A stretch of 64,000 nucleotides of DNA from Leucoraja ocellata (taxonomy: Eukaryota): assembly GCA_036785375.1 (NCBI GenBank), contig JAWMAR010000008.1, positions 6,758,001 through 6,822,000 on the forward strand, read 5' to 3'. The position numbers and the translations under genes are program-made. Positions 4,092 to 64,000 of this stretch are shown piece after piece. Numbering within the stretch: position 1 is the stretch's first letter; each line of letters opens with the position of its first letter. The notes beneath the pieces are model-generated. The model made no database searches. It saw only the letters and a list, made by a program, of their open reading frames with translations, and had not been told where the DNA came from.

Positions 4092-7000
4092 CTGAAAAGA
4101 TAAAACAACATTCCTTTGAGCCACTACATTTAATTCCACTCAACTTCTGAAACTACGAATGTCTACTTGTCCTCTCTGATTTTGACTCATTTTGACATTT
4201 AAATTCGACATCCTGTTATTCCTTGTCCCAATACACATCGCCTCACATTACTGATATAAATTTTTTATTTGTTCCATCTACACGATTCAAGAGAGTTTTA
4301 TTGCCATGTGTCAAAGATAGGACAATGAGATTCTTGCTTGTTGCAGCACAACAGAATATGTAAACATAATACAGAACAGGAGATAACTAACACACCCACT
4401 AACCTGTCTGTTCCCAAGTTTCTCACAGAACTCTGCACCTAATCATATTTCATTTTTGTGCCAACTGCAAAACTGTTATTGTAAGTAAAAGCAAATTGGT
4501 CACAATTACACTTAGGGAAGACCACTCTGCCTACTAAATAAAACATTCAGGAAAGGATACATAGTTCCTAAGAAGGTGGCAACACGGGTAGACAGGATAG
4601 TGAAGATGGTGTCTGGCACGCGTGCCTTCATAGGTCAGGGTTTCAAGTACAGGAGTTGGGATATCAGGTTACAGTAAGGTTACATGTACAAGAAGTTAAT
4701 CAGGACACATTTGGAGTACTGTGCAAAGTTCTGGTCGCCTGCCATAGGAAGGACATTAACCTGGAGAGGGTGCAAAGAAGATTTGCAAGGACGTTACGAA
4801 GCATGGAAGGTTTGAGTTATGAGGAGAAGCTGGATCTACTGGAAGAGGTGATGTTAGAGATTTATAAAATCATAAGGGGCAATAGTAGATAAGGTAAACA
4901 GCTACATTCTTCTCCCATGGTAGGGGAGTTGGCATTTCTGAATAAAGACAGGCCTCGGCAGCTTTGGAGAAATGAACACTTCTCAACTTTTAATTTTGTG
5001 CTACTAAAGAACCATGCATAAATATTTCTGACACCAATTCCAATGTTTTACTTCATTAAGGTGGTTATTAAGGTTTTATGGGGAACATGTTCCTTATGCA
5101 ATCATTACCTCTCTCTGTTTTGCTCCAATTCATTTTGTCCATTTTGCTTTTCCAACATAGCAACAAAAAAGCCATTTGTCAGTGTGGCGCTTGGCGAAGC
5201 ACGGAGACACCTGGGACCTTCAGGGAATGTGTCCAGACCACGACATGGCCACGAGGGCATCAGGTTGACTAGTCTGCATGGGACCAAAATAATATTGTTA
5301 GATCATATGTCCCAACATTATGTACAGCATTAAATATTCCCATTATCTTTCACTTAGAACCACATGGTTAGTTCCCAAATTTCTCTCTCAAAGAGGAAAT
5401 AGCTATCCAAGGTTGGTTCCACTGGTCATTCTTTGTATGTGAATCACAACAAATTGGCAGGCTATGAAAGTATGGAAGTAATCTCAGGCAAGTGTAACTG
5501 TGTCCATTCTAAAATCAGCAAAACACATCGATTGAACTCCTATGGAAAGGGTCCTGACCTGAAACATAATTTGACCATTTCCCTCCATAGATGCTGCCTG
5601 GCTTGCTGAGTTCCCCCGGCACTTTGTGTGTTTTTTGCACTAAACAGAAGTCAGGATTGAGAATGCCAATGATTTTCTTCCTCCTGTCTTCATGAGTAAT
5701 AAAAGTTCTAACAACTGCTGAAATTACATTCCTCACTCCAGGAATCTTGAATGGATTACTCTTCTTCTTCTTCTTGCGTATGGCATGCACAGCCTAAAGT
5801 TATAGGACAACTTGTTCTATTTGATTGTGCACACCAGGTTGATTGCATTCGTCGAAACAGGTTGTTTCGTGAAGGTTGCAATCTCCCACCCCAATGGATT
5901 ACTCTCAGATTGGAAGAATAGATGTAGCCAAGGAACATTGGGAGAATCCAATGAAAATGAGGAGAAATGTTCATTGATTGCCTTTAAATCCAGAACTTCA
6001 TCTCACCGGATTAATGCACCAACAGTCAAAGGACATTTGACAAGCTGTTAATTCATTCAATACTTGCCAAAAAAAACTGAATTTACAGCTGAATTCATCC
6101 TGGAATCACGAGGAATTTCAGTTTGGTCTTTGATTTTTCTATTGCTCAGGACATTGGAGGGGCGATTCAGCCCATCACATCTTTGCCAGCTACTTGATAC
6201 CTTGCACTAAACGTTATTCCCTCATAATATATCTATACACTGTAAAGGGCTCAATGGTAATCATGTATTGTCTTTCTGCTGACTAGATAGCGCACAACAA
6301 AAGCTATTCACTACCTCGGCACACGTGACAATAAACTAAACTAGATAAATCCCATTGATCTCATTCCCTCAATGATCTCCCAGTGATCTGTTCTCTCTCT
6401 AATGCCCATTAACTCATCACGATTCTCCTGCCACCCACGGGCAACAAGCAACCGTGAAAGAACCAATCCACCAATAAACCTTTGGGAAGGGGGGGGGGAG
6501 AACAATGCAAACTCCACACATACATCACCACTGTCAAGGTCAAACCCAGGTGCCTGGACCTGCCAGACAGCGGCAGTAATCACCAAGTCAACGCTGCAAA
6601 AAAGGAAACGTGTATGGGAGTGAAACCGCAGACATAAGCAATGAAGGCTCGAGTGAATTGTACAATCTGCTTCCCCAGCCATACTCTCTGTGAGGTACAA
6701 TATCACCTCAGACTGTATTATCATGTCCGAAATTCATTAAATTCCCATTCAGTTCATGAAATGTGTCAAATGAAATAATCTGGGGCAGGAGGGAAAGATC
6801 ACTGGGGCTCCCTCCCCCTTGAGACTACCTGAAATGGTTTCCATATTGCTGCAGTATCTTCTCAACAACATCTTCATTCTCCTCACGGTTGACCGAACAA
6901 GTTGAATATATAACCCGTTCCACACTTGGAAAGCTCAGTGCGTGACTCAGGGCTTTGTGCTGGAAAGCTGCTAACGCCTGCAGGCGCTGTGTGGATGACG

Positions 7001-10000
7001 AGTCCTCATCATCTGTGAACTGGTTCAAGCGGTTTACAATTCCTGATTTGGGAAAAGGACAAGGTAAGCAAAAGCCTCTCAGTATGTGTGGGTCAAATCA
7101 AATCTCACGGTGGTGCAGCAGTAGAGTTGCTGCCTTACAGCGCCAGAGACCCAGGTTCGATCCTGACTACTGGTGCTGCCTGTAGGGAGTTTGAATGTTA
7201 CCCCCATGACCGCGTGGGTTTTCCCTGGGTGCTCTGATTTCCTCGCACACTCCAAAGACGTACAGGTTTGTAGGTTAATTGGCCTCGGTAAAGATTGTAA
7301 ATTATCCTTACAGGATAGTGCAAGCACAGTGTGACTGCTGGTTTGCGTAGTCTAGTTCGGCCTGTTTCCACTCTTTATCTCTGCACTAAACTAAAAAGTG
7401 TTTGATAGTCAACCAGTTTTCACGGCATTTTAAGATTTCAGATTCAACTTTGTCATTGTCAGTGTACAATACAGAGACAACGAAATGCTTCTTGATTAAT
7501 TGCTGATGGGACCAGTCCAGTAGCGAAACATTATTTGTACTCTCCCGACAGTACTCAGAGCAGCCATATTGTCACTCGGAATAGAGGTGGCGGGTGGGTG
7601 TTCACTGAATGGAGCTGGCTTGGCTGTTAACGCTCTCTTTATTTGAGCACCTTTTTAATAAAACCAACGCATTCAGCCACCGCATGGCTGCTCTCTTTGC
7701 TCCCGTCCCTTTACGCATTGTCCATTACCGAAGAAGACTACAACAAAACCCGTCTGGATTTCACCTATTTTTTCTACCTTTAGTTTGAAGTACATATAAA
7801 CCACCTAAACTTTTTTGTCTCCAAATTCTGGAAAATGTCAAGAAAAGATTACTGACCAGAGCCGCTGCAAGAAGGATCCAGTAAAATGTACTTCACACCC
7901 TGGTACTTGGAGTCGCTGGCATCCACTAGCAAGAAGTCCTGGTTGGCCATTTCATGGCATGTGACTCCAGCCCGCAACAACAGAGTGCCCATTGTAGCCA
8001 AGCGTTTGGTGTCCAGGTCAAATGCAAAGAGTTTACTTTAAAAAAAGAACATAAAACAAATTGGAAAGGTGAAAAGTAGCCAGGAAATGGAAATAGTAAA
8101 ATTAAGACTGTGGATTATGTGGGAATAAAGTACTAAAAAAATGGTAATAATGTTAAGAAAGAGGTATTTGGCTTTACTAAGCCCACTCCACCAGTCAACA
8201 AGACCTTACTGGCAACTCCTGATGTATGCTGGCACTTCCTATTAGCCCGAGAGAAGAGATTTATACACACGTCTATTTAAAATGACTTTCTAACTATGTT
8301 GTCTTGTTCACAACTGTCACACTAGGGAGAATTACACAACATCTACCGTTTCTACAATTTGAGGTAAACCTTCATTCTTCTAAACGCTAAGGAATAAAAA
8401 TATAATGTAGTGGCCATTTGGCTTATTTTGCATGTCATTGTGGATGGCATGTTCCTTTAAATTTTAGCCAGCCCGTTATAATGTGGGTGGGATTTTATGA
8501 CGTGTCTTGGGGCGTGTTTATGCAGCTTAACTGCTTGCGTGTTAGTTTAGTTGGGAATTCGTTTTGGACAGGAGAGTGAGAAGGTTTATCCTTCGACCAT
8601 GTCGAGCCACGTCAAGCATGTCAAGCCTCATGTGAAGAAGAAGACACGAGGAGTTTTCTAGTATCTGAAGCAATGCGCTGGAGTTCGAAGAAGATTGCTG
8701 GAACAAGTCGGAAAACCTTGGATGTATCTTACTGTTTTATATCTACAATAAAGAAAATATTCATTAAAAGACTGTGTGCTGAAGCTTTATGAAAGTAGAA
8801 GCTCTGAAAGTCTCTGAGGCAGCTTGCATGCGTACCGAAGATATTCCCCTTATCCCCTCTCGTCCAATTAGTGGCTAGGGAGTTAATTTCCTGAAAGATC
8901 TGAAAAATCTGCCGCTACATATAATCTCACTTGACAGAACAACCCTCGCATTCCGTGAATTACCTGGAGAAGCACCTTTGGACATCACCTATGCTACTAT
9001 ATCCTTTCTTCGTCATGGTATTCCATGACTGCCATCACCAACACCCTATTATTAAACTCCTTCGAAATAACGCAAAAATTACGCTTGCCTCCTCAACTAC
9101 TTGATCGATCCATCTGCTAACTTGTGTAGGAAGGAATTGCAGATGCTGGCTTATACCGAAGATAGACAGCAGGTCTTCTTCAGTCAACAATAGATGCCCA
9201 GGAAAAGGAGAATTAAGTAACGATATGGAAAATGTGCAGCAGTGCCACCTGCCAGTTTCTGGACCATTATGCAAAAACAACTTCAGCTACAAGAAGAAGT
9301 GACTGGTTGCATTTGTAAAATTAATCTCTAGTATCACACACACCTTGTTTTCCAACTTACTGAGCTACTGCCAGGCTTACCCTTTGTTGCAAAGAATAGC
9401 AGCGAGATGGCTGGTCTTGTTTCCAGGAGCCGCACACGCATCAATTACGTGAGAACCCACTGGAGGGTTCAAGAGATGTGCTGGGAGACAACTGGCCTGC
9501 GGATAAAAAGGGGGTGAAAAGACATTTATTGGACAAGTGATTGGGATGAGTGATTCAGTCAACATATATAACCCACAATGCAGTAAGTGAATCATTGAGA
9601 GTAGGGCAGGATCGGCTGAGGGAGCAGAGTCATCACATATACTGATCTAGAACAGGCTGATAGTTCTTCACAAGGACCTAACATTTGCAACACGAGCAAC
9701 GCCGCAGTAACTCACTTGCTTTTGACCCATCCAGAAATAAGACATAAACAAAACATTACAGATGATAGAAATCTAAAACAAAGAAAATACCGGAAAGGTT
9801 GAGAAGGTCAGGCAACAAGTTAACGTTTCAGGTGAATGACCTTTTATTCGAATTACGCAACAAACCTCTTTAGCCAGAGGGTGGTCTTCTTCTTGCGAAT
9901 GAAACATAAACCAAAGGAATAGTAAGATCAAGACGAGTGTTGAGCAGCCAGGTTGTTGTCTCTGCGTCAAGATGTCTGCAACCTTCTTGTGGTCTCTCCT

Positions 10001-63760: not shown

Positions 63761-63796
63761 GGGTCTGAAGAAGGATCTTGACCCGAAACGTCACCC
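63761..63796 (+). ncRNA. Minimal type I hammerhead ribozyme motif
   Basis: GGGT CTGAAGA A GGATC TT GACCC GAA ACGT C ACCC: stem I GGGU/ACCC, palindromic ACGU stem III, GUC site, one stem II mismatch. Confidence 0.65.
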
Positions 63797-64000
63797 ATTC
63801 TTTCTCTCCAGAGATGCTGCCTGTTCCACTGAGTTACTCCAGTATTTTGTGTCTATCTTCGTAATAAAGACGAATATTCCATTTGCTTTAAAATTGAATG
63901 CTGCACCTATATGTTTCATGAATCTCATGAACCAGGAGGCGAAGATTCCCTTTAGCGCCACCTTACTAAGAATATGGGCTCAAGCGGGTCTTGAATCTGT

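Follow-up and report, generated by a model that had tools for sequence, protein, structure and literature searches.

A Penelope-type minimal hammerhead repeat dispersed through a 64-kb window of the Leucoraja ocellata genome

Minimal type I hammerhead ribozymes are carried in metazoan genomes by Penelope-like elements (PLEs), and their published consensus reads NNN CUGANGAH G..C GAAAN palindrome NUH NNN (PMC4209133). In the Poseidon element PAc of Anolis carolinensis, mutation of the hammerhead leaves insertion unaffected, and cleavage needs protein (PMC11167929). Insertions of PLEs have been described as including partial tandems, adjacent inverted 5'-truncated copies and a tail on one side only, and a Cys-rich linker between reverse transcriptase (RT) and endonuclease (EN) has been described for Neptune and Nematis (PMC8557442). 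Hammerheads also occur in retrozymes that lack long terminal repeats (non-LTR retrozymes); these consist of units of 150-450 bp repeated in tandem, and their hammerheads are canonical (PMC7229834). Here we analyse a stretch of 64,000 nucleotides from Leucoraja ocellata (assembly GCA_036785375.1, contig JAWMAR010000008.1, positions 6,758,001 to 6,822,000 of the forward strand), hereafter the window, in which an original prediction made from the sequence alone had placed about 20 dispersed hammerhead-like motifs. The repeat that bears these motifs is real, abundant and ordinary for its lineage, and, by the sequence features tested, its motif belongs to the published PLE minimal hammerheads, a known element type and not a new ribozyme family.

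A nucleotide hidden Markov model (HMM) built from 17 window copies, and run on the window with the reversed window as a control, gave 28 matches at E<0.05, with no match below E 4.8 in the reversed window. Every one of the 22 sites listed previously was assigned to a single repeat superfamily, the weakest being 14835 (E 3e-4) and 9825 (E 0.03); an earlier model from nine seeds also gave 28 matches, with 0 in the reversed control, and missed these two sites. The exact pattern CTGANGA-N8-30-GAAAC occurs 7 times in the window against a mean of 1.11 (maximum 4) in 100 order-3 Markov simulations, and a descriptor with stem II pairing added occurs 4 times against 0.09 expected (maximum 1). The repeat reaches a density of about one copy per 2.7 kb of this window, the hammerhead region is present in 24 copies, and the very high abundance that had been claimed is supported. 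An Rfam scan of the window returned no hammerhead match at E<=5, and pattern scans of viral contigs, metagenome contigs and GTDB genomes returned no match.

The unit is 90-130 bases long, with the hammerhead at its head. It runs (C)AGT, CTGAAGA, A, a 4-bp stem GGGT/(A/G)CCC with a (C/T)TCG loop, GAAA, CGT, C or T, and (A/G)CC, followed by about 60 nt more and an optional extension of about 38 nt, here called the tail. At least four subfamilies are visible; copies of subfamily A are 95-97% alike and those of B 76-90%, and A and B are 76% alike. Across the core, C3-U4-G5-A6-N7-G8-A9 and G12-A13-A14-A15.1...U16.1-H17, the plurality base fits at all positions. The unpaired base after A9 is A in 19 of 20 rows, the G10.1-C11.1 pair is GC in 11, GU in 1 and unpaired in 4 of 16, and the palindrome 15.2-16.2, which has no loop III, keeps its C in 22 and its G in 14 of 24 rows, the losses being mostly G to A at CpG. 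This fit to the published consensus supports the call of a Penelope-type minimal type I hammerhead with a palindromic stem III, and membership is assigned because all tested features of PLE minimal hammerheads except compensatory changes are present. Shared with the metazoan PLE hammerheads are CUGANGA with its bulged base, G10.1-C11.1, the GAAA-CGU-H palindrome without loop III and a short helix I, and there too most motifs are single ones from truncated PLEs, with opposite-strand pairs 100-700 bp apart (PMC4209133). Helix II here has 4 bp and a (C/U)UCG loop, and helix I, at 2 bp, stands at the short end of the published range, although the published alignment does include examples of 2 bp (PMC4209133 supplement fig. 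S3). The parts of that alignment searched hold no shark, ray or skate row (PMC4209133). The copies, and the PLE relics that lie among them, are as follows.

63763..63861, plus: solo copy (HMM; C3 63765) with predicted cleavage after 63792; intact core and ACGU, one A-C mismatch in stem II, 8-bp flank duplication, 4-bp stem I owed to two flanking G
49583..49682, plus: solo subfamily A copy (C3 49587) with an intact core; A in place of G10.1, stem I of 2 bp, 10-bp target duplication
23173..23273, minus: subfamily A copy (C3 23269) with the family pattern fully intact
23274..23314, minus: unit of 44 bp (C3 23313) in partial tandem, immediately upstream of the copy at 23269; the two form a doublet with two intact cores (23229-23314, minus) and share one 13-bp target duplication
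24125..24199, plus: copy (C3 24129); G16.2 changed to A breaks the palindrome, and another repeat interrupts the 3' part
38131..38311: head-to-head inverted pair, 38131-38180 minus and 38173-38311 plus (C3 38178); tail on the plus copy only, 11-bp target duplication
43557..43868: inverted pair, 15-bp target duplication; minus copy (C3 43687) with a tail, an intact core, a damaged stem II and, upstream, about 55 nt rich in pyrimidines; plus copy (C3 43779) with G12 changed to U and no tail
18803..19009: inverted pair, 5'-truncated minus copy with tail and plus copy (C3 18915, G12 changed to A) without; 12-bp target duplication
35268..35492: inverted pair, 35268-35362 minus and 35366-35492 plus; tail on the plus copy, no clear target duplication
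17566..17655, minus: older copy of subfamily C (C3 17650); stem II 3/4, AUAU in stem III, intact core
30690..30843, plus: copy that extends about 55 nt upstream; A in place of both G5 and G12
31138..31223, plus: subfamily A copy that is cut short within the hammerhead; target duplication of 9 bp
37285..37405, minus: copy truncated inside stem II, with tail (HMM)
43304..43391, plus: copy truncated inside stem II (HMM)
5547..5637, plus: subfamily C copy without the CUGANGA half (HMM)
28765..28852, minus: degenerate subfamily C copy (HMM)
20043..20091, plus: short degenerate copy (HMM E 7e-7)
48282..48377, minus: degenerate copy with CTGAAGA at 48372; a GIY-YIG relic lies about 150 nt upstream on the same strand
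14826..14900, plus: very degenerate copy (HMM E 3e-4), about 285 nt downstream of a same-strand GIY-YIG relic
9782..9848, minus: weak divergent copy of another subfamily (HMM E 0.03)
3290..3352, plus: 3'-only fragment with tail (HMM)
3881, 17845, 18687, 27943 and 33759, plus, and near 9149, minus: like 3'-only fragments (HMM)
13943..14542, plus: broken PLE linker and GIY-YIG endonuclease relic (tblastn with chondrichthyan PLE proteins, E 2e-6 to 2e-3)
48526..48783, minus: PLE GIY-YIG endonuclease relic, C-terminal part, interrupted by stops and by an insertion (tblastn E 1.6e-5)
21183..21292, plus: short GIY-YIG relic (LYIGETK..RLGDRF), 78% identical to P0004, a whale-shark protein with a GIY-YIG match

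These rows correct the earlier sorting of sites into best and degenerate cores. Two of the supposed best cores, 43779 and 18915 on the plus strand, have lost G12; 43687 on the minus strand had been ranked as degenerate and has an intact core with a damaged stem II; and the minus-strand copies 18803-18915 (the partner of 18915) and 28765-28852, with about seven 3'-only fragments, had been overlooked.

Most copies are defective, as had been supposed. The conservation table leaves out six 3'-only fragments, and its 24 rows are related; the homology start was set by eye, which favours the 5' half of the core and leaves the 3' half free of that bias. All invariant core bases are kept in only 8 of the 24 rows, five of which also keep ACGU, and two of those the full stem II. 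The copy at 23269 is the only one in which the core, ACGU, a 4-bp stem II and a 2-bp stem I are all intact. A comparison of core with flank favours the core: non-CpG core cells are at the plurality base in 178 of 186 cases, against 921 of 1153 in the 3' flank, where the best 11-column stretch reaches 90%, and the internal 3' half of the core (A13, A14, A15.1, U16.1) stands at 91 of 95. G12, which lies inside a CpG, is intact in 16 of 24 rows; this base is the general base of the hammerhead (PMC6155905). We also aligned contigs of four public runs to 43690-43990, placing 113,970 records from run X18 and 96,626 from run X22, with summed depth not taken as copy number; the run search listed X18 and X22, and no RNA run, as containing the stretch. 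G12A accounts for about 24% of summed depth in both X18 and X22, and no non-CpG core position reaches a variant level of 4%, which is likewise true of many flank positions. We read these data as a core under selection in the source elements, with genomic copies that decay neutrally.

Three kinds of observation identify the unit as the 3' end of a PLE, namely GIY-YIG relics 150-285 nt upstream, inverted pairs with a one-sided tail, and target duplications. The three relics that had been proposed are genuine, each matching chondrichthyan PLE endonucleases, and two of them are followed on the same strand by a hammerhead copy (at 285 and 150 nt), both of old subfamilies. The relic at 21168 has homologs by HMMER scan and none by word-indexed search. 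Longer relatives of the 21183 relic are shark and ray proteins with RT, GIY-YIG and a Cys-rich linker (P0005, P0021); the linker is found in the relatives P0005, P0021 and P0025 and, only in degenerate form, at 13943-14131. The source elements are probably Neptune-type. The ray and skate gene models P0021, P0024 and P0025, annotated as kinase, mucin and receptor-transporting protein, contain PLE RT or GIY-YIG sequence and are probably mis-annotated transposon exons. As for the insertions, there are four head-to-head inverted pairs, with the tail of about 38 nt on one member of each, and one partial tandem. Exact target duplications of 8-15 bp, in windows placed by eye after the flanks had been seen, occur at 8 of 14 insertions, including three of the four inverted pairs and the partial tandem; since those three pairs and the tandem each lie inside one duplication, each is a single insertion event. 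PAc likewise has its hammerhead near the pseudo-LTR end and two 3' ends that define a 30-40-nt tail (PMC11167929), whereas the relatives of the elements here carry the Cys-rich RT-EN linker of Neptune and Nematis type (PMC8557442).

We therefore consider it very likely that the repeat represents the pseudo-LTR region at the 3' end of a GIY-YIG PLE with the usual minimal type I hammerhead, and that its inserts are relics made by the PLE machinery. The mechanism that we infer is target-primed. The PLE protein would nick the target and, either about 90 or about 130 nt downstream of the hammerhead, start reverse transcription; the optional tail would be the difference between these two sites. Copying would usually stop within the hammerhead, at its start or just before it, and the result would be short solo inserts flanked by target duplications of 8-15 bp; a jump during copying would sometimes add an inverted or partial-tandem piece. 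The hammerhead of the source element would cleave weakly and as a dimer, by analogy with described cases (PMC4209133, PMC6765202), probably with protein help, while the genomic copies would be inert relics losing CpG sites.

Several observations weigh against this explanation. In all four copies tested, the active dimer is predicted at -5.9 to -15.3 kcal/mol and the best dimer at -23.7 to -34.8 kcal/mol, so that the active fold lies 10-28 kcal/mol above the best one, in an energy model that ignores tertiary contacts of the core. The plurality stem I has 2 bp followed by an A-C mismatch at the third position, and stems I of 4 bp are found only at 63765 and 18915 on the plus strand. Among 16 related rows, stem II shows no compensatory change (0 of 4 pairs with a two-sided change), and the whole structure does no better than column shuffles in a covariation test. 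The third endonuclease relic (21183) has no hammerhead copy behind it, 6 of the 14 insertion sites have no duplication, and tblastn with PLE proteins found neither an intact PLE nor an RT relic in the window, so we infer the link of subfamilies A and B to the open reading frame. Finally, the 5' start of the copies is sharp, unlike what random 5' truncation predicts.

This sharp start deserves closer attention. Among the 14 copies with the CUGANGA half, ten begin within about 5 nt of it, two of these ten sharing a junction, and four continue into upstream pyrimidine-rich sequence. In many copies the first base lies 1-5 nt ahead of the core, away from the cut site, and the idea that hammerhead cleavage makes the 5' ends is rejected, as the copies contain the core upstream of that site. 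In the run contigs, loose ends pile up at 43776-43777 (in X18, 1772 and 1006 contigs), and 43776 is also where inverted joints begin. Part of the pile at 43776 comes from a private change at 43775 in the aligned stretch; among the rows listed, the cut site at 43806-43807 has no such pile. In PAc, similarly, no RNA ends were found at the cut site (PMC11167929). Summed depth upstream is 4-11% of that over the core, a figure that is undercounted because the subfamilies differ there. Such a start could reflect an RNA end that is fixed, a stop linked to splicing, or a short RNA of its own; any one of the three would account for it.

The last of these would make the short units a family in their own right, similar to short interspersed nuclear elements (SINEs) and non-autonomous, with an RNA of 90-130 nt that starts at the hammerhead, has its own transcription and borrows the PLE protein. 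The clustered starts, the loose ends and inverted joints at 43776-43777, the thin upstream depth and the 95-97% likeness of subfamily A copies all speak for it. Yet four of the 14 copies run into upstream sequence, two old copies reach a relic of the open reading frame, and the upstream depth is undercounted, as the subfamilies differ there; moreover, internal initiation of reverse transcription on full-length RNA would give similar short inserts with no new family (PMC11167929). We regard a separate family as improbable, and the short units may instead be by-products of full-length PLE RNA. The second possibility is a splice site. In the copies with upstream sequence, a pyrimidine tract, CT(A/G)AC (3 of 4) and AG (3 of 4) stand directly before (T/C)CTGAAGA, and CAG is the majority before the core in run contigs. 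A 3' splice site (pyrimidine tract, CT(A/G)AC, YAG, then TCTGAAGA) could fix the start, as a defined RNA end or as a point where RT stops, although we think this doubtful. In Drosophila virilis Penelope, the 3' end of an intron maps at the 5' side of helix I, hinting at a link to splicing (PMC4209133; PMC2377424). That hammerhead also has a 2-bp helix I, and the YAG after the pyrimidine tract here takes the place of its intron end; by contrast, helix III here has no insertion, and the intron there is mapped whereas the splice site here is a candidate (PMC4209133; PMC2377424). If the splice site were real, it is tempting to speculate that internal initiation of reverse transcription 90 or 130 nt downstream draws on the 5' end of full-length PLE RNA and mass-produces short inserts headed by the hammerhead. 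By splicing, the 5' strand of stem I would then be exchanged, and a pair could take the place of the A-C mismatch, giving a splice-activated ribozyme.

The repeat had also been called retrozyme-like, which is not borne out. A non-LTR retrozyme would have tandem monomers that self-cleave, circularise and re-insert as arrays. Such elements resemble ours in their type I hammerhead, lack of coding capacity and proposed PLE origin (PMC7229834; bioRxiv 10.64898/2026.07.22.740005), they are reported in the single chondrichthyan sampled by the latter, and the window does hold one 44-bp doublet with two intact cores, while short goes-back joints occur among the run contigs. Against this, retrozymes form tandem arrays with mostly canonical hammerheads and circular RNA (PMC7229834; bioRxiv 10.64898/2026.07.22.740005), whereas the units here are dispersed, solo or inverted, with a tail and target duplications. 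No array of 150-450-bp units is present among 19 rows of Tandem Repeats Finder output, the doublet being the sole tandem, and the hammerhead is minimal, with a 2-bp helix I and no Rfam match, in place of the canonical 6-bp helix I and contact of loop 1 with loop 2. Copy ends lie off the cut site, which shows no pile of loose ends among the contig rows listed, and the doublet is one insertion in a 13-bp duplication; it would pass the preprint's rule of two consecutive units but falls below its 51-972-bp range (bioRxiv 10.64898/2026.07.22.740005). The doublet was rejected as a natural active dimer on predicted folding, its active fold standing at -2.0 against a best of -28.0 kcal/mol, with a pair probability of about 0.001. 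Each inverted pair, for its part, is predicted to fold into a long hairpin. With arrays and a canonical hammerhead both absent, the retrozyme assignment fails on its testable features, and we hold it to be very unlikely. Less likely still, and hardly credible to us, is that an abundant repeat which was never a ribozyme resembles a hammerhead by accident. The lack of covariation and of an Rfam match, the poor predicted active fold and the many flank positions as invariant as the core in run contigs would suit it, but all 11 invariant bases, the bulge after A9, G10.1-C11.1 and the ACGU palindrome co-occur at the known PLE place, and the core is better conserved than its flanks across subfamilies, including in its internal 3' half.

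With PLE-made relics as the preferred explanation, batoid fishes join the animals whose genomes carry PLE-scattered minimal hammerheads, here at high density. We found no published description of such motifs in rays or skates, in a search that most subscription journals and Repbase/Dfam lay outside. The abundant copies could be used to test how PLE reverse transcription ends and whether splicing switches the hammerhead.

The window itself is vertebrate DNA of about 41% GC. Exons for RING/B-box (22379), PRY-SPRY (38804) and zf-PARP (46276) lie in it; the PRY-SPRY exon compares with TRIM50 of the stingray Hypanus (94% identical), Mobula (93%) and whale shark (91%), and the zf-PARP exon presumably belongs to DNA ligase III. 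A GC-rich minisatellite at 19253-19566, with periods of 18, 41 and 59 bp, lies just upstream of a minus-strand protein start, which we take to resemble NSUN5. A second short repeat family occurs at 24200-24340, 12947-13120, 37183-37290 and 38543-38662; one copy of it splits the 24129 hammerhead copy and another adjoins that at 37285. LINE (long interspersed nuclear element) and Tc1 relics are scattered throughout. The LINE relics include 11990-12637 (minus), with a 215-amino-acid open frame and no Pfam match at the cut-off, and 24337-26874 (minus), with endonuclease and RT. A Tc1-like transposase at 61355-62377 (minus) has two adjacent open frames with helix-turn-helix and DDE_3 matches and is apparently young; an older Tc1-like relative lies at 40834-41229. 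Finally, a near-perfect hairpin of about 100 nt at 55274-55380, with GC-rich ends and an AT-rich middle, matched several microRNA models, all below Rfam gathering scores, and looks like a miniature inverted-repeat element.

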